IMG/VR virus record: IMGVR_UViG_3300045988_117831
DNA: 64,000 bases
Strand: one strand, 5' to 3'
From: a virus
Positions 29,297 through 60,906 of this stretch are shown here, in pieces; the first letter of the stretch is position 1, and every line of letters begins with the position of its first letter. The notes under the pieces were generated by a model. That model saw only the letters and a list, made by a program, of their open reading frames with translations. It was not told where the DNA came from and did not search any database. The translations under genes and the position numbers were made by a program.

Positions 29297-30730
29297 TTAC
29301 TCCCCCTTCAGGTAGCTGTCCAGCTCGGCGCACTGCGGAGCAGAACCGGCCGAATCCTGGGCTTTCGATTGACGGCTGGCCGCGCCGCGCGCGGCTTCGA
29401 CACCTTTCAGGTACATGTCGAGCGCCAGTGCTTCCTGGCCCTTCGCGCAGCTGATATTCAGCTTCTTCACGCCGTAAACAGCGACTTCAGCCGAGTCCAT
29501 AGCTCGGTGATCGAACGCACCAACCACGGAGCTAAGACGCTTGTAGAGGCGATCTTTAGCAGCAATGTCGCGATAGAGACCGCGAATTGCAGCATCTTGC
29601 GCGTTCTTCTGTGCCATTTCAGGAAGTTCCTCGCTGTTATCCTTGCCCTCACCACCATCGTCGCTGGCGGTTTGCGCGCCGCTGAGGCTGCTCTGCTCTT
29701 CCAAGCCCTCGACGACATCTTGACCTTCGCCATGCTCTTCGTCCGCCCCTTCGGCTACCGTGCCCTCCAGTCGAGCCAGAATGGCCTTGACTTGAGAGAT
29801 CAGTTCGGCGACTTCGCCTTCACCGGACATTTCGGATGCGGCACCTTCTTGATGCTCCGGCTCGACGGCGGCCACGGCCGGATCGACAACGGAAGGCTCC
29901 TCTTCCTGCTCTTCGTCATCCTTCTGAGCACCTTCCAGAGTCGGATGCTCGGTCAGGTGCTCGCTGTCGGTCGGTTCGGCCGGAGCTGCGCCTTCCTGAT
30001 GCTCCGGCTCCTGCTCTTCTTCGCCCAGGAACTTCTGGACAGACGCAGATAGCTTCGGCCACAGGGCGCGCAACTCTTCGACCGCCGAGTCAGCAGCTTG
30101 CCCTACGCGCTGGACAGGGGGCTTCCGCTTGGCTTTCTTGAGACTCATTTCATTACCCTCATCGGATGGTCTGAAATCAAAACTGAGATGGTCAAAACAC
30201 AGACCATCCAATACTCTGGCCCCCGGCACACGACCCTCTTTTACCAGGGCAATGTGGTTGCCGCGCATCTTGTCCTGGACGACTTCATAAGGTGTTCCGT
30301 TCCAGATGCCGGGTTGCTCAGTGTAGCGGCAACTATAGCCTAGGGACAGGTCTTCTTTGCCCCTTTCCAGCTGATTCTGCATGTTGCGGGAATAGATGCG
30401 GATATCGCCGCGTGCCCATGGGGCTTCGTAGTAAGCGTTGGATGTGATGATGCCCTCCACCCCTTTGTCTTCGGGGGCCACGCTATCGTCATCATCGTCG
30501 AATCCCGACAGCATCTCATGCTCGTCGATCAACGGGAGATTCTTCAGAGATTCGATGTACTCCGGATCGCTGACGGCAGACTCCGGGCGATATACGTTGA
30601 CAATCCGCGTCGGATCGCCCGGAAGACCGAGTTGACCAGCAGAATATTGGAAAACGCCATAAGAGCTGATCGGGCAGCCCTCTATGGTCATATATCCATT
30701 TTCGTCAATTTTTCTTTTCGACTTTGCCAT
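29297..30730 (-). CDS. prohead protease-like (DUF2213-type) N-terminal domain fused to an acidic scaffold-like C-terminal region
   Basis: N-terminal motifs ..VYRPE..LIDEHE..GNHIALVKEGR... The central region is extremely acidic with a duplicated EPEHQEGAA unit. 477 aa. Confidence 0.6.
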   Translation of the reverse strand: MAKSKRKIDENGYMTIEGCPISSYGVFQYSAGQLGLPGDPTRIVNVYRPESAVSDPEYIESLKNLPLIDEHEMLSGFDDDDDSVAPEDKGVEGIITSNAYYEAPWARGDIRIYSRNMQNQLERGKEDLSLGYSCRYTEQPGIWNGTPYEVVQDKMRGNHIALVKEGRVPGARVLDGLCFDHLSFDFRPSDEGNEMSLKKAKRKPPVQRVGQAADSAVEELRALWPKLSASVQKFLGEEEQEPEHQEGAAPAEPTDSEHLTEHPTLEGAQKDDEEQEEEPSVVDPAVAAVEPEHQEGAASEMSGEGEVAELISQVKAILARLEGTVAEGADEEHGEGQDVVEGLEEQSSLSGAQTASDDGGEGKDNSEELPEMAQKNAQDAAIRGLYRDIAAKDRLYKRLSSVVGAFDHRAMDSAEVAVYGVKKLNISCAKGQEALALDMYLKGVEAARGAASRQSKAQDSAGSAPQCAELDSYLKGE

Positions 30731-30869
30731 CGTTAATTCGAAGAGTCGTGGACTATGGCTGTATTATATACGCAGTACATCTAAGGGTAAATAAGCGGAA
30801 CAATAATTAGATGTAGCCGTGACTGTTAACTTACATTATAATTTGTATTATGATCTAATTACCAGTTTC

Positions 30870-31210
30870 CTCAGCCGCGAAAATCCGGTAATTTGGTCTC
30901 GGAAACTTGACGGGATTTGTCTAAGCCTACTGCCGCGAGGCTTTCAACTCCTAAACTAATTCAAATTACCAATTTACCGATTAAAAATTGAATTTCAATA
31001 CGTCTAGAGCATATAGATTGACGTTATATTATAACGTTACTTATAGATGAATTCTATTGGAACGTTACTTCTAATTTCCCAGGCTATATACTTTTGAAGC
31101 ATGCGGCTAAATCGGAAATTAGGAACTGGCTCTGTTAAAGCCTCGCGGCAGTAGGATTTCCAAATTACTGCTATTTTCCGTAAACGGTAATTTGCGGCTA
31201 TCCGGACTAG
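30870..31210. repeat. non-coding repeat element R1, homologous (~85% over an 80-bp core) to 50385-50690
   Basis: Core 30899-30978 (CGGAAACTTGACGGGAT..TGCCGCGAGGCTTTCAA..CAAATTACCAA). A perfect 19-bp inverted repeat at 30926-30944 and 31137-31155 flanks a ~190-bp AT-rich core. The core carries AACGTTACTT x2 and TATACTTTTG. Confidence 0.8.
31064..31092 (+). promoter_or_regulatory. promoter-like GTTACT-17-TATACT inside R1 (variant of the TTTACT family), + strand, no coding target
   Basis: Sequence only. It points antisense to the 31380-31586 gene. Confidence 0.3.
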
Positions 31211-38530: not shown

Positions 38531-38968
38531 ATGAAAAAGTTCTGTGTCGACATCACTAATGGTCTGGCCGGCTTCATCATCTGGGGCGGCGCAATCGTCC
38601 TGGCTGCTACCGTCTTCGTCATCGGCCCGCTGGCCCTCCTGCTGACCGGCGCCTGGGTTGTGTGTACGTCCGTAGTGTTCGCCCTCTGGTTCGCCGTCGC
38701 CGGCATCTACGAAGAGTCGCAAAAGCAGACCGAGTATCTTAAATCCCTGGTGTCGCTCCAGGCGTGTGAACGCGGCATCGGCTACGGCCCAGGAGACGCC
38801 GGTTGCAGCGCTAGCGCTCCGGCCGTTCCCGTAGAGCCCAAGCTCAGCCATCCCAAACTGAAGCCGGGCGCACAGCTCGCGGCCGCTGTCTTGTTCTTTG
38901 CCGCCCTCATCCTCTTGCTGGTAGCAGGTGATTGGATCTGGAATTTCTTCCAGTCGATGCCGAAATAG
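38531..38968 (+). CDS. membrane protein, 3-4 TM (145 aa)
   Basis: GAAGGAA SD; hydrophobic segments at the N-terminus, centre and C-terminus. Confidence 0.55.
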   Translation: MKKFCVDITNGLAGFIIWGGAIVLAATVFVIGPLALLLTGAWVVCTSVVFALWFAVAGIYEESQKQTEYLKSLVSLQACERGIGYGPGDAGCSASAPAVPVEPKLSHPKLKPGAQLAAAVLFFAALILLLVAGDWIWNFFQSMPK

Positions 38969-38981
38969 TGGAAGAAAGTGC

Positions 38982-39010
38982 TTTACTTCCATTCTGAATG
39001 AAGGCAGAAT
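38982..39010 (+). promoter_or_regulatory. TTTACT-17-CAGAAT promoter of the conserved family, plus conserved leader
   Basis: GTGCTTTACTTCCATTCTGAATG is identical over 23 nt to the copy at 43098. Confidence 0.5.
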
Positions 39011-39054
39011 AGCTCCATTGAAATGCGAAACCCTTCAGACAAAAGGAACCGACC

Positions 39055-42679: not shown

Positions 42680-42781
42680 TCTAATCAATCCGGTGTCAGC
42701 AATAGGTCGAGTATATCGACGCCGCAACAGACGGTCGAGCACAACCGTTCGTCGGTGAACATAATTTTATTGTTAATACAC

Positions 42782-42810
42782 TTTACTTCCATTCTGACCA
42801 ACGGCATAAT
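42782..42810 (+). promoter_or_regulatory. TTTACT-17-CATAAT promoter plus conserved leader
   Basis: Conserved family member, upstream of the ATG at 42850. Confidence 0.55.
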
Positions 42811-42849
42811 CTCTTCATCGAAACGAACAAACACCTGGAGGGTAAGACG

Positions 42850-43008: not shown

Positions 43009-43100
43009 TCAACATTCGGATGCGGAAATGCCTTCCATGGGAGGAAATATTCCTGACGGGCATACCGTTCGTCCACTTTGAGAAATATTTCACAATTCTG

Positions 43101-43129
43101 CTTTACTTCCATTCTGAATAGCGTCATAA
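43101..43129 (+). promoter_or_regulatory. TTTACT-17-CATAAT promoter plus conserved leader
   Basis: Closest to the family consensus; leader ..CTCTTCATCGAACGCGAAACACTCCAAAACAGAGGAA.. Confidence 0.55.
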
Positions 43130-43174
43130 TCTCTTCATCGAACGCGAAACACTCCAAAACAGAGGAACGCAGAA

Positions 43175-44580: not shown

Positions 44581-44609
44581 TTTACTCGATGAGGTGGCTG
44601 AGGTATAGT
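44581..44609 (+). promoter_or_regulatory. TTTACT-17-TATAGT promoter plus conserved leader; -10 embedded in an 8-bp inverted repeat (GATGAGGT..ACCTCATC)
   Basis: Family member with a possible operator. Confidence 0.5.
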
Positions 44610-44651
44610 TACCTCATCGAACGCGAAACACTCCAAAAAGAGGATTGCGAC

Positions 44652-46521: not shown

Positions 46522-46536
46522 GAATCAGGGCATAAT
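46507..46536 (+). promoter_or_regulatory. TTTACT-18-CATAAT promoter plus leader with a CCGGCT..AGCCGG hairpin
   Basis: Family member; overlaps the 3' end of the previous ORF. Confidence 0.5.
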
Positions 46537-46586
46537 CTCTTCACCGGCTGAGAAGCCGGACCAGAAGTCCAAAAAGGAATCTCGAA

Positions 46587-48545: not shown

Positions 48546-48607
48546 CTCTTTCAACGGGGCGACAAACTGAAGCCCAAACGAAATCTTCCAAAACAGAGGA
48601 TCGCAAA

Positions 48608-49225
48608 ATGACCAACTCCATCAAAACCTTCGGCGACATCCAGAACGCAGAAATGAAAGAACTGGTCGCCTTCTACAACGCTCACAACGCCGATGCGACT
48701 GTCAAGCGTTTCTCTGACCGCAAGACTGCTGAGCGTCGCTGCCTCGCCATCCTGAATGCTCTGCCGGCCGAGGAAGAAGCCTTTCAGGAAGAGGAAGCCC
48801 CGGCCAAAGTCTACAAAACCCGCACTTCCAAGAAGAAGAAGGAAGAAGAGAAGGCCGAGGAAGAGAATCTGAAGCCTGAAGAAGAGATCACCGAAGAGGA
48901 AGCGCTGGAAGAAATCCGGAAGATGCGCGAAGAGGCCAAGAACGCTCCGGAGAAAGCCAAAGAGTCCAAAGACCTGTCGGCAGCCATCGCCAACTCCTGG
49001 AAAGACCCGGAAGTTTCCAAGAAACGCACTCAGCGCCATGGCGTGGCTGTGACTGTCAAAGGCAAGCGCGGCGAGTTCCGGTCCACCAACGCAGCATTCA
49101 TCGAGTTCGGCCTGCCTTCTTCGAAACACATCCGCTTCCGCATGCAGCTGAAGGCGGCTGGCAAAATGACTTTCGAGCACGAAGGCGTCAAATACAACTT
49201 CGAAATCATCGAAGCTGGCGAATAA
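48608..49225 (+). CDS. hypothetical protein with central KE-rich acidic linker and conserved C-terminal domain (205 aa)
   Basis: AGAGGA SD; last + strand early gene. Confidence 0.55.
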   Translation: MTNSIKTFGDIQNAEMKELVAFYNAHNADATVKRFSDRKTAERRCLAILNALPAEEEAFQEEEAPAKVYKTRTSKKKKEEEKAEEENLKPEEEITEEEALEEIRKMREEAKNAPEKAKESKDLSAAIANSWKDPEVSKKRTQRHGVAVTVKGKRGEFRSTNAAFIEFGLPSSKHIRFRMQLKAAGKMTFEHEGVKYNFEIIEAGE

Positions 49226-49391: not shown

Positions 49392-49961
49392 CTAAATGGG
49401 GTTGGCGCGGTCTTCCTCGGTCGGTTCCGGAGACGGAGACGGGAAATCTCCCTCTTCACCTTCCGGCACATAGCCATTGGCTTCGGCCGCAGCAGCGACG
49501 GTCGCGGTCTGAGCCTCGGCTTCTGATGCGTAGAAATCGGCCAAACCGCGACCGATCCGGGTCTTGCCCGACTCGTCCACGAACGTGATTTCAGCCAGAA
49601 CGTTCAATTCCTTGATGGCCGACAGACGGCTGGAGTCCTTGACGGTGGGGTCACGAACCATTTGGAGGAGTTCGTGGAGCGCCGTCTTTGGATTCCACAA
49701 ATCGGACGTTTTGGTCGCGTTCAACTTGGCCTTGAACTGCTTGCGATAGTACGGGTTGGACTCCATCGCGAAGATGCGGGCCTGCGCGGGACCGTCCATA
49801 TGCTCCTCGCCCCAGATGGCCCGGAAGACCCGCCAGGAGCTGTAACCTTGGACGCGCAGGTCGATGTACAGGTCGAATCGCTTTTGGTTGATCGCCGCGA
49901 AATGCGGGTCTGCGAATTCCTGTGGCGTGACTAGATCGTCGGGGCTGTAGAATTTGGTCAT
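49392..49961 (-). CDS. possible terminase small subunit-like DNA-binding protein (start uncertain)
   Basis: ..KRFDLYIDLRVQGYSSWRVFRAIWG.. then ..SRLSAIKELNVLAEI.. resembles the HTH and oligomerisation pattern of P27-type small terminases. Alternative starts: GTG at 50042 (no SD) or ATG at 49961 (weak SD). Confidence 0.35.
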   Translation of the reverse strand: MTKFYSPDDLVTPQEFADPHFAAINQKRFDLYIDLRVQGYSSWRVFRAIWGEEHMDGPAQARIFAMESNPYYRKQFKAKLNATKTSDLWNPKTALHELLQMVRDPTVKDSSRLSAIKELNVLAEITFVDESGKTRIGRGLADFYASEAEAQTATVAAAAEANGYVPEGEEGDFPSPSPEPTEEDRANPI

Positions 49962-50384
49962 TTGGTGCTGCGTCCCTGAGTTCGATTCTGGAGTCGTCGT
50001 GGTGGCTTGGTTGGCGGATGGCCCTGGTGCTCTGCGCGACACTGAGTATGGCGCGATTGTACTATGGGGCCAGGGATCGCGTCTATGGGCTGCTTGTGGG
50101 TGGCCTGTAGGTCTGGGTGGGTTTGATGGTGAATGAGTGTTAGGTGGTGTTATAGGATGTTATATGGGCGGTCTGCTGGTGGGTGAGGGTCGAGTCGGCG
50201 GTTGGTGGGTGAGGATGGCGGTGAGGGTTTGGATTGAGTGTTAAATCGAATGTTAGAAATATGTCCAGCTGAGCGATTCTGTCGCGCTCCCAAATTTCCG
50301 GTTCCGTTCGTCGAGTTTTGGCACTTGCCGCTTAGTCCGCCGTGGTGTTGCCGCGACCCATGGATTGGAAGTCCGGAAGTTTCC

Positions 50385-50690
50385 GGCGACCCTGCCGCGA
50401 ACTGGCTGGAATCGGAAACTTGACGGGATGTGTACAAGCTTAGTGCCGCGAGGCTTTCAAATACTAAAGTATACCAAATTACCAAATTACTATTAATTTA
50501 ATTAATTTTAAAGATAGGTAACGTCCGTGATAGATTTTTTCTATTAGGATTGTGCAATCGATTTTCGCTGTAGTATACTTTTGCGGCTGCATCCGAAACC
50601 GGAAATTATCCGTTAAAGCCCTTCAAACCCACGCGGCACTAAGGCTAGGCCCTAATTACCGGTTTCGTAAATTACCGGTAAGCTCGACGC
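50385..50690. repeat. non-coding repeat element R2, homologous to R1 (30870-31210)
   Basis: Core 50411-50490 is 85% identical to 30899-30978. An imperfect inverted copy at 50615-50644 matches 50438-50456. Shared AT-rich core with TATACTTTTG (50574-50583) and AATTACC motifs. Confidence 0.8.
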
Positions 50691-50874
50691 GGCCGACCCC
50701 AAAAATCCAGTCAGAATCGGCGATTTTCCACAATTCATCCAATCACCACACAAAATCCTCGATCCACCGTCCACGAACTTTCCATAACGCAACATCACCA
50801 CCCCATCCTAATTACCGGATAGCTTCCGAATCTCACTCGTCCACCACCGAAATTAATGTACGCCGCACCAAAGA

Positions 50875-50903
50875 AAAAGACCGCCCGAAGGCGGCCTAGT
50901 CCA
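50875..50903 (-). terminator. intrinsic terminator for the primase-helicase operon
   Basis: On - strand: GGCCGCC-ttcg-GGCGGTC followed by TTTTTCTTT. Confidence 0.7.
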
Positions 50904-50922
50904 AGTACACTCCGCCACTACA

Positions 50923-52662
50923 TCAGAAATCCTCGCCCAAAATCTTGGCTCGCTCGGCCCGGACTGCCCGAATTTTTGCCATGGCAGCCTCATCAGTGAT
51001 GTCCGGGTCGCCCTTTCTCAGCAAGTACACAAGCGCATCATTGAACGGCGGCAACGTCGTGTGCATGCCATTCGTCCATCCAGGTGCAACCTTATCGACA
51101 GGTAAGCACCAACCAGCAAGGCCGTTCTTATTCGGGATGAATCCCAGCGCCTTCAGGTGCGGAGTAAGGTGACGAGAAATCGGCTTCTTCCTGGCGAGAA
51201 TATCGAACCATTTCAGAATGGAAACGGTGTCAGCCCTCCATCCAGGATTCTTGGCATTCCTGCCAGGCTTGATCTCTTCGAACTCGCAACTGATCAGAAC
51301 ATTGATCAGATACATGTCAATCGTATCGTCACGAACCACGCCACGCGCATTCTCCATTTCCGAAATAGAGAATTTCTGGACTTCGCGGTTCGCTTCCGAC
51401 ACCATATCCAGGTATCCATCGACACCATGCTCTTCGATCCATGCGCGGCATTCAGCCATCGCTTGCCAGAATTTGCGGCCGAAGTCGGTGAAGTCCACCT
51501 TGAACGGTTCATTACCATCGCCCGGCTTAACCCAGTTCGGCTTTCCATCTTCGTCGGGAAGTTGTGCCACGAACATCGGATAGAATCGACGGTTGCCGGA
51601 GTCGTCCCGCTGGAGTCCATCGTATCCGTTGCCGTCCATGATGGTGATCCATTGTCGCTTGATCGTTTCGCCAGGCTCAAACTTCTGGTCGAATGTATCC
51701 GAAGATCGCACCAAGAACTCCTTGATGCGTTCCATATCGCCCTTTTTGAAGCCGGACATTTCCCCGACGTTCGCAATGACCGAGTTGCCGGTGATATTGC
51801 GCAGGAATGGCGTCTGGTCGTGTCGGCTCAGATCGAGCTGGACTGGAGCCAGATCGCGACCGCCAGACAGTTCTTTGCAGATCAACAAGCCGAAATATGA
51901 TTTCCCCGCATCCTGCCCACCAATCAACGCCAGCGAGATCGGCGCCGAGATTCCAGGATAGTTGATGCGGCAGTACAGGCTCAGCCAGAAATACCTGCTT
52001 ACCATCCGGTTCAATTCGGTGTCGAACGGCTTGAAAAGATCGATCAGCAACGTGCTAATTCGCTCTTCGCCGTCCCAATCCGGTATCTTCTTCTCAAACG
52101 TTTCGATCAAAGAGTTGCGGCGATATCGACGCGCCCACACGCAGCAAGTCTCAATCGTCTTCTTAATCGAGGGATCGTCCAAGGCCGCAGCCGCGAGGGC
52201 GTCCATCAGGTCAATCGGATCGAGGGTCTTGTTGTTGAACGCCACGCCGCGATGGTCCACCAGCCGGCCGCGAAACTCGTCGAAGTGCGGGTGTGGGACG
52301 GTTCCGTCGCCCTTACAGAACAACGTATCATAGACCGCGAGGTAGTTGCTGTCTGAAGTCGAGCTGTACTTGGTGATAAAGTCATCGAACGGTCCTTTCA
52401 CCAGCCGGCTGACCGGAAGATCAAAGGCCTGGTCGAGCATCAACAACCGCGCTCGCTTCCTCAAGTCTGGTTCAGCATACGCCTCGGCGTATCTTGCCGC
52501 CTTTTGCGCGCGATGCGTTTCGTTCCTCGCAATCGCATCATCGGCCGCCTTGCTCGCGGCGGTCATCAAAGGGTCCATTCCAGCATCTTCTATCTGCGTG
52601 AGATCAAACTCACTGGACCCTGATTCGCCATCATCAAAAATATTATCTTCGTCGATAATCAT
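50923..52662 (-). CDS. VirE / P4-type primase C-terminal domain (D5-like) P-loop helicase
   Basis: Walker A LIGGQDAGKS and the signature ..DDSGNRRFYPMFV. 579 aa. Confidence 0.8.
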   Translation of the reverse strand: MIIDEDNIFDDGESGSSEFDLTQIEDAGMDPLMTAASKAADDAIARNETHRAQKAARYAEAYAEPDLRKRARLLMLDQAFDLPVSRLVKGPFDDFITKYSSTSDSNYLAVYDTLFCKGDGTVPHPHFDEFRGRLVDHRGVAFNNKTLDPIDLMDALAAAALDDPSIKKTIETCCVWARRYRRNSLIETFEKKIPDWDGEERISTLLIDLFKPFDTELNRMVSRYFWLSLYCRINYPGISAPISLALIGGQDAGKSYFGLLICKELSGGRDLAPVQLDLSRHDQTPFLRNITGNSVIANVGEMSGFKKGDMERIKEFLVRSSDTFDQKFEPGETIKRQWITIMDGNGYDGLQRDDSGNRRFYPMFVAQLPDEDGKPNWVKPGDGNEPFKVDFTDFGRKFWQAMAECRAWIEEHGVDGYLDMVSEANREVQKFSISEMENARGVVRDDTIDMYLINVLISCEFEEIKPGRNAKNPGWRADTVSILKWFDILARKKPISRHLTPHLKALGFIPNKNGLAGWCLPVDKVAPGWTNGMHTTLPPFNDALVYLLRKGDPDITDEAAMAKIRAVRAERAKILGEDF

Positions 52663-58573: not shown

Positions 58574-59467
58574 ATGGAACAGAAAGACCAGAACGAGCAG
58601 ACCCAAGGCGAAGAGCTGACCAAGGAACAAGCAGCCGCCCTGCGCAAGGCCGAGAAGGCCGCTGAGCGTCAACGTAAAGAGCGCGAGCGCGCCGAGAAGG
58701 CCGAGGCCAAGGCCAAGGAAGCCGAACAGAAGAAAGCCGAGCGCGAAGAGAAGCGTAAGGCCGAGCGCGAGAAGAAAGAAGCCGAGCGCGCCGAGAAGGC
58801 GAAGGAAAAGGCCGCAGCCAAGGAAGCCGAGCGCGCTGAAAAGGCCAAGGCGAAGGAAGCCGAGCAGGCCGAGAAGGCGAAGGCGAAGGAAGCCGAGCGC
58901 GAGCAGAAGAAGGCCGAGAAGGAAGCCGAGCGCGCCAAAAAGGCCGAAGAGAAGAAGGCCGCCCAGGAAGCTCAGAAAGTAGCTCGCGAAGAAGAGCGCA
59001 AGCGCCTGGCCGAGCAGAAGAAGGCTGAGCGCGAAGCCGAGAAGCAGCGCCGCAAGGAAGAGCAGGAAGAGCGCCGCAAGAAGGCCGAAGCCCGCCGCGA
59101 AGACCTGAAGTCCAACGGCTCGCGTCGCCCCCGCGCCACTCACTTCATCCCGACCGGCGACGGCCATGGCACTCCGCAGGCCTTCTCGACTCGCGGCAAG
59201 GTGTTCGCATACATCAACGAGCACTGCACCGTTGGTGAGCCGGTCGAAATCGAATCCTTCGGCGATAAGGTGGCCCATCTTCTCTATGGCACCTCGGTCC
59301 GCAGCTACCTGAGCAAGCTGGAAATCATGGGCTGGGTCGATCTGGTTGCCATCGCTTCGAAGGAAGACGAAGCTGGCCAGGGCGATGACGAGAAGGCCGA
59401 TGACGAAGGCCAGGAGCACGGAGGTGAAGATCAGGGCGCCGATGGTTCCGAAGGTGAGGAGGAGTAA
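58574..59467 (+). CDS. highly charged Lys/Glu/Ala-repeat protein with globular C-terminal domain and acidic tail (297 aa)
   Basis: About 170 aa of AEKAKAKEAE-type repeats, mirrored by nucleotide repeats at 58660-59100. Confidence 0.6.
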   Translation: MEQKDQNEQTQGEELTKEQAAALRKAEKAAERQRKERERAEKAEAKAKEAEQKKAEREEKRKAEREKKEAERAEKAKEKAAAKEAERAEKAKAKEAEQAEKAKAKEAEREQKKAEKEAERAKKAEEKKAAQEAQKVAREEERKRLAEQKKAEREAEKQRRKEEQEERRKKAEARREDLKSNGSRRPRATHFIPTGDGHGTPQAFSTRGKVFAYINEHCTVGEPVEIESFGDKVAHLLYGTSVRSYLSKLEIMGWVDLVAIASKEDEAGQGDDEKADDEGQEHGGEDQGADGSEGEEE

Positions 59468-59492
59468 GCCGCCGCTCCTCTGAGCCTGAATC

Positions 59493-59527
59493 GTCTAGCT
59501 CTTCAAGGGACTCATGAAAATGGGTCC
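59493..59527 (+). terminator. intrinsic terminator
   Basis: AAGGGAC-tcatgaaaatg-GGTCCCTT followed by TTTTATCC. Confidence 0.65.
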
Positions 59528-59538
59528 CTTTTTTATCC

Positions 59539-59568
59539 TCTCAAGTTTTGTACTCTCAAGTTTTGTAC
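59539..59568 (+). repeat. 15-bp tandem direct repeat x2 (TCTCAAGTTTTGTAC), candidate operator
   Basis: Perfect duplication immediately upstream of the 59587 gene. Confidence 0.85.
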
Positions 59569-59586
59569 ACTCATAAGGGACACATC

Positions 59587-60588
59587 ATGATTCCTGATCA
59601 GAAAGTAATCATCGTAGGTGCCGGACTCGCCGGACTGATCGCCGCGCATCGCTTTCCTCAAGCCCAAATCATCGACGCGGCGACGCCGGAGAACAAGGAG
59701 CGCCACAACGCACTTCTGCGATTCCGCTCGCCAGTGATTGGCCAACTCACCGGCATCCCGTTCCGCAAAGTCACTGTACACAAAGCTATCTACATCGACG
59801 GCGAGTTCATTTCCCAGCCGCGCATCGACCACTGCAACATGTACTCCAGGAAAGTAACGGGCGGCCTGTCGGACCGGTCCATCTGGAATCTGGCGACTGA
59901 AAAGCGTTGGATCGCACCGGCCGACTACTATGAGCAGCTGGTGGCTAAGCTTGCGAATCGTATCACTTGGAGCCGTCCTTTCGACGCCTCTTTCTTCCAG
60001 TATCTTCGCCGGCAAGATGACCACGTGAATATCATCAGCACCGCGCCGTTCCGCGCCAATCTGGCTGCGGCAGGGCTGGACCTGGGAATCGACCCGTCAT
60101 TCGGTGAAGGAACCTCCATCATCGTGAGTCGATACAAGCTCTCCATCCCCTGTGATGTCTTCCAGACCGTGTATTTCCCTGGTCCTAAAGTGGGAACGTT
60201 TCGAGCGTCCATCACCGGTGATACTCTGATCGTCGAATCCATCACTAAAGGGATAGTGGAGACTTTAGATGGTAAAATCGAAACCATCGAATGGGACAGC
60301 GACTGGGATATGGATTACGTTTGCGCGGCCTTCGGCATCAGAAGGAAACAGCTCATCGAAGATGGCGAGCCGACCATCCAGACCAAAGGCAAAATCATTC
60401 CGCTCGGTCGCGACGAGCGCGAATCCATGATCTGGAATCTCACCCATGAGGCTGGCATCTTCTCGCTCGGCCGGTTCGCTACCTGGCGCAACGTCCTTCT
60501 GGATGATCTGGTTTCGGACATGGACGTCATCGAGCGCCTGATGACTTCTTCGTCTTATCAGAAGGCCAAGAAAATGTTCGTGAAGTAA
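59587..60588 (+). CDS. FAD/NAD(P)-binding Rossmann-fold protein
   Basis: AAGGGA SD; N-terminal VIIVGAGLAGLIAA dinucleotide-binding motif. Confidence 0.6.
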   Translation: MIPDQKVIIVGAGLAGLIAAHRFPQAQIIDAATPENKERHNALLRFRSPVIGQLTGIPFRKVTVHKAIYIDGEFISQPRIDHCNMYSRKVTGGLSDRSIWNLATEKRWIAPADYYEQLVAKLANRITWSRPFDASFFQYLRRQDDHVNIISTAPFRANLAAAGLDLGIDPSFGEGTSIIVSRYKLSIPCDVFQTVYFPGPKVGTFRASITGDTLIVESITKGIVETLDGKIETIEWDSDWDMDYVCAAFGIRRKQLIEDGEPTIQTKGKIIPLGRDERESMIWNLTHEAGIFSLGRFATWRNVLLDDLVSDMDVIERLMTSSSYQKAKKMFVK

Positions 60589-60601
60589 TTTACAAAAGTG
60601 C

Positions 60602-60630
60602 TTTACTTCTGGATCAGGTGGGCGTAATAT
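60602..60630 (+). promoter_or_regulatory. TTTACT-17-TAATAT promoter plus conserved leader
   Basis: Family member upstream of the ATG at 60676. Confidence 0.5.
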
Positions 60631-60675
60631 TCCCTCATCGAAACGCGAACCCCTTCAACCAAAAGGAATCGACAA

Positions 60676-60906
60676 ATGGCCCGCGAAGTAACCTTCTCCA
60701 CCGACAAGAACCACACCAAAACCTACGCCACCAAGGCCAATCTCGAACGCGCTATCGCCAAGGCCGAGTGGCTCGGTGAAGGCGCCCGCTACTTCATCCA
60801 TATGACCGAGGACGGCCGCCTGACTCCTGTGTTCCTTCTGAATAGCCTTCCTGCAGGGGCTGGTGCCGTGTGGTGCGCTCAGCACGGCTGGAACGTGGTA
60901 GGTTAA
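60676..60906 (+). CDS. hypothetical protein (76 aa)
   Basis: AAAGGAA SD. Confidence 0.5.
   Translation: MAREVTFSTDKNHTKTYATKANLERAIAKAEWLGEGARYFIHMTEDGRLTPVFLLNSLPAGAGAVWCAQHGWNVVG

Follow-up and report, generated by a model that had tools for sequence, protein, structure and literature searches.

The closest described counterparts of the locus analyzed here are the packaging-initiation (pac) sites of other phages. In SPP1 and SF6, where packaging is headful and unidirectional, pac lies at the promoter and 5' end of the small terminase gene (terS), and recognition repeats stand on both sides of a central segment in which the DNA end is formed. In P1, clustered hexamer repeats flank the cleavage region inside pacA, the equivalent of terS. 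T4 carries in genes 16 and 19 a pac-like pair of homologous sites associated with the small terminase protein (TerS), in direct orientation and bracketing the genes for the large terminase (TerL), portal and head proteins, and a TerS-mediated synapsis model was reportedly developed for it by Black and colleagues. A plan of repeats, AT-rich segment and further repeats, present in two separated copies that share their repeats, is also known from the origins of Staphylococcus aureus pathogenicity islands and phage-inducible chromosomal islands (SaPI/PICI), from SPP1 oriL/oriR and from P4 ori/crr. The present analysis concerns an element, R2 (50043–50922), of the virus record IMGVR_UViG_3300045988_117831, a stretch of 64,000 nucleotides (the window, to which all positions refer unless stated otherwise), and a second copy, R1 (30853–31200). 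The reading favored here, with moderate confidence, is that R2 combines the pac site with the control region of terS in a Pbunavirus that packages by the headful mechanism, and that R1 is a paralogous second site.

A 4-kb piece around R2 matched 298 phage records, nearly all of them Pseudomonas PB1-like phages (genus Pbunavirus), the closest being phage 14-1 (98% identity, opposite strand). R2 is the whole intergenic region of about 960 bp between two − strand genes, a VapE-like primase/helicase gene upstream and terS directly downstream (14-1 gp76, 189 aa, 49392–49961). The gp76 protein was identical at 187 of 189 positions (E = 2.5e-125) to PDB 7UXE, "Small terminase", which is the decameric TerS of Pbunavirus E217, and it belongs to phrog_4783, as do the products of the genes that follow the corresponding element in phages of Burkholderia and P. 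syringae. On the strength of this match gp76 is taken to be a genuine TerS, where an earlier note on this DNA, made from the letters alone, had called it "TerS-like". Since a pac site is expected in or next to terS, the position of R2 directly upstream of a gene identified through PDB 7UXE agrees with such a role. According to two papers, the genes for TerS and TerL lie far from each other in PB1-like phages.

An apparent fixed DNA end, recurring in sequence records and reads, maps to the AT-rich center of R2 (50491–50574), which also contains the palindrome ATAGA-N5-TCTAT (50530–50544). The "putative packaging site" given in the JG024 report at 59,376 aligns to position 50560, the C of AAAATC^GATTGC. 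The Pa193 record begins with the same C, and PA8P1 begins 2 nt later. When a 110-bp query across position 50560 was compared with GenBank at a coverage threshold of 80%, 297 Pbunavirus records matched, 23 of which fell below the threshold, and among the matches listed all five low-coverage records (Ab28, Ab29, TH15, fHoPae01 and PB10) had their position 1 at 50560/59. About 23 of the 297 GenBank records probably start at this point; chance would place about 0.01 record starts in a 3-nt window. Records starting at AAAATC^GATTGC run towards terS. Reads with a single fixed end, which is the signature of a pac end, were described for phages Ab27–Ab29 (Essoh 2015), and headful, circularly permuted Pbunavirus genomes were reported in other studies. 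The equivalent test on the R1 center returned full matches for 295 of 297 records.

R1 and R2 are clearly related in sequence. The core identity of about 85% claimed in the earlier note was reproduced as 67 of 80 positions (84%, ungapped) between 30899–30978 and 50412–50491, the latter 1 nt off the coordinates it gave, and its claim of homology beyond the core is borne out by a gapped alignment of about 400 columns (77% column identity) in which the motif blocks that it named appear. A repeat search returned an ungapped R1/R2 pair of 105 nt with 77% identity. The 16-mer GGAAACTTGACGGGAT occurs in the window at 30901 and 50414 only; when IMG/VR was scanned with it, 32 loci were obtained, about three of which look like Pbunavirus, the remainder probably being chance matches.

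Common to both elements are inverted TGCCGCG/CGCGGCA arms and AATTACC repeats. The window-wide search for the 19-bp inverted repeat that the earlier note had proposed located the arm AAAGCCTCGCGGCAGTAGG three times, at 30926–44 (−), 31137–55 (+) and 50439–57 (−, 2 mismatches), with a chance expectation of zero. The imperfect inverted copy that it had described within R2 is also present, the right arm (50615–50644) being, when read directly, the same 19-nt sequence split by an insertion of 11 nt. AATTACC has nine exact copies in 64 kb, eight of them within R1 or R2; like the 19-nt arm, it is essentially restricted to the two elements.

In R1, the arms (30923–44 and 31137–58) form a 22-nt inverted repeat (95%) with an AT-rich center between them, and AATTACC-type repeats lie at 30857, 30893 (−), 30964, 30971, 31163 and 31192 (−). 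In R2, the block most similar to R1 (50414–50457, −) contains the left arm AAAGCCTCGCGGCACTAAG at 50439–57. Three direct copies of CGCGGCA are found on the terS side of the center (50349–55, 50393–99 and 50444–50, all −), and a fourth, inverted copy on its opposite side (50632–38, +). The right-arm region (50600–50690, +) comprises the arm at 50615–44 and AATTA(C/T)C at 50604, 50654 and 50670, and an additional AATTACC lies at 50810 within the flank that follows (50690–50869), which is G-poor on the + strand, G/T-rich in the terS sense and hypervariable among Pbunaviruses.

Conservation was evaluated on an alignment of 12 distinct Pbunavirus versions of R2, 76–98% identical overall. Values of 0.97–1.0 were obtained for the center (50491–50574), and positions 50516–50565 were 99–100% conserved, exceeding the flanking coding ends. 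The terS side reached 0.88–0.99. On the primase side (50590–50870), conservation was 0.62–0.86, and this part was nearly unalignable with JG024. R1 was 97–99% identical among those Pbunaviruses that could be aligned. As a separate observation, the stretch 50590–50870 is a mosaic hot spot, about 50% identical to JG024 compared with 97–100% over the adjacent 600 bp, and only its G/T richness (terS sense) and GGTAATT motifs are kept.

Genus-level relatives were found when the primase, TerS and protease proteins were used as queries; a search for related loci with the single primase protein returned close relatives only. An element directly upstream of terS was observed in Pbunavirus, Burkholderia phage Karil-Mokiny-1, P. 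syringae phage tabernarius, E. coli phage Bas100 and six lineages from IMG/VR. The plan before terS consists of GCCGCG-type motifs, lineage-specific repeats, an AT-rich center, inverted CGCGGC-type motifs and repeats, a C-rich leader and a TACAAT/TATAAT box, and GCCGCG/CGCGGC motifs stood on both sides of the AT-rich center in every lineage read. The repeat itself differs: AATTACC in Pbunavirus, TAGTTAT/C in Karil-Mokiny-1, ATAGTCA in tabernarius, ATGATACG / ATCCGTATC in Bas100, and, in the uncultured lineages L053, L057, L059, L056 and L051, AACTTGCG, ATAGTTG, AAGTTGA, AAATACA and CTATACCGGCAG, respectively.

In four lineages outside Pbunavirus (Karil-Mokiny-1, Bas100, L051/L107 and L057/L087), the lineage's own repeat was also found just upstream of the head protease gene. 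Twelve of the 13 genomic matches to ATGATACG in Bas100 lie in its two elements, the copies in L051/L107 share a 56-bp match with 96% identity, and all ten ATAGTTG matches in the protease locus of L057/L087 cluster in the element. Judged from these comparisons, the two copies co-evolve within a genome and diverge between genomes, as would be expected if both were read by a single sequence-specific protein of the phage.

The gene order of the relatives also separates terS from the primase gene. In Bas100, the gene next to the primase gene follows without a gap and is no TerS homologue; terS (39% identity) lies 9 kb away, with the element directly before it and none after the primase gene. In L051, the 5 kb preceding terS contain no primase, and in L058 an open reading frame (ORF) is inserted between the primase gene and the element. 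The ORFs upstream of terS in L051 and L058 gave no matches in PHROG and Pfam searches. From the gene orders of Bas100, L051 and L058 it therefore follows that the element tracks terS and not the primase gene.

Both elements stand upstream of − strand genes, as the earlier note had stated: terS follows R2, and the head-maturation-protease gene gp22 (29297–30691, −) follows R1, which sits between gp22 and two small ORFs. For phage 14-1, 50 transcription start sites (TSS) were listed by ONT-cappable-seq (Table S3, bioRxiv 10.1101/2023.10.13.562163), two of which fall in R2, both of the sigma70 class and both in the terS sense, i.e., on the − strand of the window. The first, P040 (TTAATA-17-TGnTATACT, 50468–50496, −), starts at 50456/57 (14-1 59399), as located through the 50 nt of sequence preceding the 14-1 start, and the LBL3 and DP1 records already carried a prediction of it. 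The second, the proximal P041 (TAGACG-18-TACAAT, 50056–50085, −), starts at about 50048/49 (14-1 59807), and its TACAAT/TATAAT box just 5' of terS recurs in the distant lineages. Transcripts from both (TU045 and TU046) pass through terS, TU045 extending from 59399 to 60626 (bioRxiv 10.1101/2023.10.13.562163). A consensus scan of R2 returned exactly P040, P041 and the terminator of the primase/helicase gene. The AATTACC/AATTACT pair at 50477–50491 occupies the P040 spacer, and the first nucleotides of the P040 RNA are the left arm, AAAGCCUCGCGGCACUAAG.

The only mapped start beside R1 is that of P014 (sigma70, TTTACC-17-TATAAT, 30763–30791, −; 14-1 TSS 13257), from which TU014 reads into gp22. 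It falls between the homologous core of R1 and gp22, 65 nt ahead of the gene. CTGGG, the core of a phage-specific promoter motif of 14-1, was found once in R1 (−, about 31078–82, towards gp22) and not at all in R2, with no TSS listed for it; the occurrence in R1 was judged to be due to chance.

In the terS sense, R2 is thus composed of the primase terminator, the variable G/T-rich flank, the inverted TGCCGCG arm with GGTAATT repeats, the near-invariant AT-rich center, P040 with its repeat-filled spacer, the CGCGGCA arms, a long C/A-rich leader, P041 and terS. In the proposed mechanism, the TerS decamer would recognize the arrays of repeats and arms flanking the center, in the manner of pacL-pacC-pacR of SPP1, and hand the center over to TerL, the first cut presumably being made at AAAATC^GATTGC. 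Packaging would then proceed towards terS. Because the repeats overlap P040, TerS binding would at the same time down-regulate terS, occupancy of the spacer repeats lowering its transcription. Such down-regulation would fit the lowered infectivity reported for E217 upon TerS over-expression. R1 is a paralogous array of these putative recognition motifs ahead of the prohead-protease operon. The protein that binds it is probably the one that binds R2, and R1 may act as an accessory or alternative pac site, as a synapsis partner or as a regulator of the head operon.

When compared with the pac sites of SPP1 and SF6, R2 is alike in its position at the terS promoter, in the putative recognition repeats on both sides of a center where the end is probably formed, in headful, presumably unidirectional packaging and in the autoregulation of terS that binding would bring about. 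It differs in its unrelated recognition sequences, in a strongly AT-rich center of about 100 bp, in long strand-skewed flanks and in having a second, paralogous copy about 19.5 kb away, and TerS binding is putative here. With P1 pac it shares short repeats (7–9 bp here) clustered on both sides of the probable cut region, whereas no sign of methylation control was observed, the site is intergenic and the repeats differ in each lineage.

The likeness to T4 concerns the two homologous sites in direct orientation, which here, too, bracket the genes for TerL, portal and head proteins. In contrast to the short T4 sites inside coding genes, about 3 kb apart, those described here are intergenic arrays of at least 350 bp, 20–26 kb apart and conserved across genera. 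A broader and more tentative proposal is that the PB1-like myovirus clade, including its Burkholderia, E. coli and uncultured relatives, possesses a two-locus recognition system for one DNA-binding protein, most likely TerS, in which the second site is a functional partner. R1 may in that case be an alternative pac, a synapsis partner like the T4 16/19 pair, or a switch linking the expression of the head genes to packaging.

Several points weigh against the assignment of R2 as pac and R1 as its second site. TerS binding at R1 and R2 is putative, and according to a review the TerS of E217 did not bind DNA appreciably in vitro, in assays not known to have included R1 or R2 fragments. The spacing of the repeats is irregular (8–20 bp), the pac model assigns no settled role to a second pac-like copy, and in tabernarius only the terS copy was found in the parts of the genome that were read. 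As for the DNA end, PhageTerm gave no significant peak for phage Banzai, and for JG024 the signal derives from a transposase library that its own authors distrust. Record starts are indirect evidence, and their agreement may come partly from shared software or copied conventions.

The alternative that survives best, though it is considered unlikely, is that the two elements are operator arrays for a lineage-specific transcription factor other than TerS, which would co-regulate terS and the protease–scaffold–capsid operon, the DNA end in R2 being a separate matter. Both copies are indeed upstream of mapped sigma70 promoters (P040 and P041; P014), the repeats overlap the P040 spacer, and the two-site layout precedes the same two genes in five lineages. 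The authors of the TSS study also suspect additional phage factors at the non-sigma70 promoters of 14-1, a suggestion only loosely related to this case. However, no candidate regulator was identified, the R1 promoter is some 150 bp away from the homologous core, in which no TSS lies, and the near-invariant center with its reproducible DNA end would be left unexplained. In addition, the G/C skew switch described below is specific to the terS copy.

The flanks of R2 are strongly skewed in composition. On the + strand, 50100–50249 contained 3, 6 and 2 C and 22–24 G per 50 nt, and 50700–50849 contained 5, 4 and 6 G per 50 nt. The near absence of C from 50100–50270 and of G from 50700–50880 described in the earlier note was thereby confirmed, at 2–6 C and 4–6 G per 50 nt. 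When read in the terS sense, a G-rich upstream flank and a C-rich downstream flank were observed at the terS copy in eight of nine lineages, and the pattern was weak or absent at the protease copy; the skew is thus a conserved property of the terS copy.

Because P040 maps upstream, the C/A-rich, G-poor − strand stretch 50100–50270 is part of an untranslated terS leader of about 495 nt. The fold of this leader did not exceed that of shuffled sequence (z = +0.71), and it would fit a Rho-utilization (rut) site, being a long, untranslated, C-rich, G-poor and weakly structured RNA (2–6 G per 50 nt over 50100–50249). Full-length P040 transcripts are nevertheless present (TU045). A scan of the whole window with Rfam 15 gave no matches at the gathering score.

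These data bear on the proposal that divergent promoters in the center send C/A-rich, G-poor RNAs in both directions as Rho-loading sites or unstructured leaders, for which we see little probability. The P040 leader, long and without excess structure, the recurrence of G-rich and then C-rich flanks in eight of nine lineages, and the reported cost of excess TerS in E217, with which attenuation would make sense, speak in its favor. Of the RNA that the earlier note expected to leave the center in either direction, the − strand half stands as the P040 leader, but the + strand half is not supported: the + strand of R2 had no TSS in the 14-1 table and no consensus promoter in the scan. A + strand TATACT(TTTG) at 50574–50579, common to R1 (31087–92) according to the alignment, has no entry in that table, was not picked by the promoter scan and is altered in JG024, and R2 is least conserved in its + strand flank. 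R1, the repeats and the DNA end would also remain unexplained. A Rho-sensitive or unstructured terS leader would account for the downstream skewed half only and, for the leader alone, can coexist with the pac assignment.

No more credible is the view that the elements are replication origins, two copies of repeats around an AT-rich unwinding segment that would be bound by the adjacent VapE-like primase/helicase, in the manner of SaPI pri-rep-ori and SPP1 oriL/oriR. This gene (14-1 gp75, 579 aa, 50923–52662, −), annotated "DNA primase", carries the Pfam VapE-like_dom (E = 2.9e-22) and belongs to phrog_4630; its intrinsic terminator (50870–50898, −) was recovered by the scan as a stem (50897–50878) with a T run and is annotated in the JG024, DP1, phiKT28 and LBL3 records. 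The SaPI/PICI origin lies 3' of rep, and the Pbunavirus element likewise follows the VapE-like helicase gene, as it also does in Karil-Mokiny-1, tabernarius and several IMG/VR contigs. The iteron-type plan of short repeats around an AT-rich segment is present, also in the relatives, and a local minimum of the cumulative GC skew of Banzai (52,360 in TerL-start coordinates) falls, by a rough mapping, within or close to the primase gene and R2.

In contrast to the SaPI, SPP1 and P4 origins, however, the helicase gene of Bas100 is no longer linked to the element, which lies 9 kb away before terS, while linkage to terS is kept, and L051 lacks a primase within 5 kb upstream of terS. The center is conserved in sequence, beyond composition, and the apparent packaged-DNA end maps to it. 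No cluster of DnaA boxes was found, with one match at 1 mismatch in R2, none in R1 and no excess in the window, although such boxes are optional for phage origins. The local skew runs counter to the G excess that is usual on a leading strand, and the most prominent skew minimum of the genus lies in the polymerase gene; GC skew is not decisive as an origin test, because gene orientation dominates it. Of the functions that the earlier note had suggested for the elements, regulation or replication/packaging, packaging is thus favored by the fixed end and the linkage to terS, and an origin has no specific support.

It is very improbable that R2 encodes a protein. A terS-sense ORF of 111–228 codons ending near 50150 is open in most Pbunaviruses, and coding sequences (CDS) are annotated over it in some records (JG024 gp77, 59205–59786; F8 ORF075; four small CDS, CDS76–79, in APTC-PA18), but the start codon and length vary, the P040 TSS falls within the ORF, and the skewed composition alone suppresses stop codons. 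Variable columns showed no third-position excess (25/29/28 inside the ORF, 55/52/51 upstream), and the 14-1, LBL3, DP1 and phiKT28 reference records leave R2 uncalled. On this evidence R2 is best treated as non-coding, and the conserved non-coding element with a second copy that the earlier note had proposed is upheld in the form of the paralogous pair. As there is no codon periodicity, the "hypothetical protein" CDS calls over 50150–50900 (−) are probably artefacts of the stop-poor skew, which would make several GenBank entries in R2 spurious.

The mobile element that the earlier note had considered is not supported: inverted arms exist, as in a miniature inverted-repeat transposable element, but the homology passes beyond them, there is no third copy, and insertion sites do not vary, both positions being fixed across genus-level lineages. 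An RNA or cruciform stem formed by the arms was set aside, since the arms do not co-vary in PRS-1, where one is of the R1 type and the opposite one of the R2 type.

Pbunaviruses belong to the Pseudomonas phages most often used in therapy, and the structure of their TerS has been solved, although we know of no described DNA target. The R2 promoters, the approximate genome end and a one-line mention of a "putative packaging site" are already in the literature or in sequence records. No description was found in the searchable literature, a scope that did not include Ceyssens 2009 and Lokareddy 2022, of the anatomy around the DNA end, the paralogous second copy, the cross-genus two-site layout with lineage-specific repeats, or the linkage of the element to terS rather than to the primase gene. 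Candidate TerS targets can now be named, namely the AATTACC repeats and the inverted TGCCGCG/CGCGGCA arms that surround the near-invariant center with the observed genome end, and TerS–DNA recognition therefore becomes directly testable. This is of relevance to transduction risk and to the design of rebooted genomes. A co-evolving second copy, conserved across genus-level lineages, is unpredicted by current packaging models.

Some further observations concern the two elements and the rest of the window. The linear record of E215 (NC_042080.1, positions 1 and 66789) breaks in the R1 center, at 31059, with the junction GTAACGTTC^CAATAGA, also written GTAACGTTC^CAATAGAATTC. It is the sole R1-breaking record among the matches listed (297 matched, two without full coverage) and is not significant alone; if the start of its record reflects read ends, R1 may serve as a packaging start in E215.

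The terS leader contains a perfect palindrome of 14 bp, CCGGAAGTTTCCGG, at 50373–50386, which is highly conserved in Pbunaviruses (block score 0.97), and half-sites akin to it, CCGGAAA/TTTCCGG, are scattered across R1 and R2. In L045, an IMG/VR Pbunavirus, the C-rich terS leader contains a 36-nt tandem duplication at the equivalent of about 50219, which appears as a repeated PPSLANRRLDPH in the translation of the spurious ORF.

A separate repeat family, CTTTACTTCCATTCTGA ... ATAATCTC ... CATCGAACGCGAAACACTCCAAAACAGAGGA, matches sigma70 early promoters mapped in 14-1 (e.g., P001, P006 and P028). It was found at 38962–39022, 42762–42839, 43082–43174, 44600–44638, 46532–46565, 48579–48608 and 60577–60721, and runs on into a shared C/A-rich leader that ends at the ribosome-binding site. 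Finally, the stretch 58620–59040, inside a coding region, consists of dense in-frame tandem repeats of the AAGGCCGAG type, Lys/Ala/Glu-rich and with periods of 21, 33 and 45 nt; the 14-1 start sites P031–P033 map to the equivalent of this stretch.

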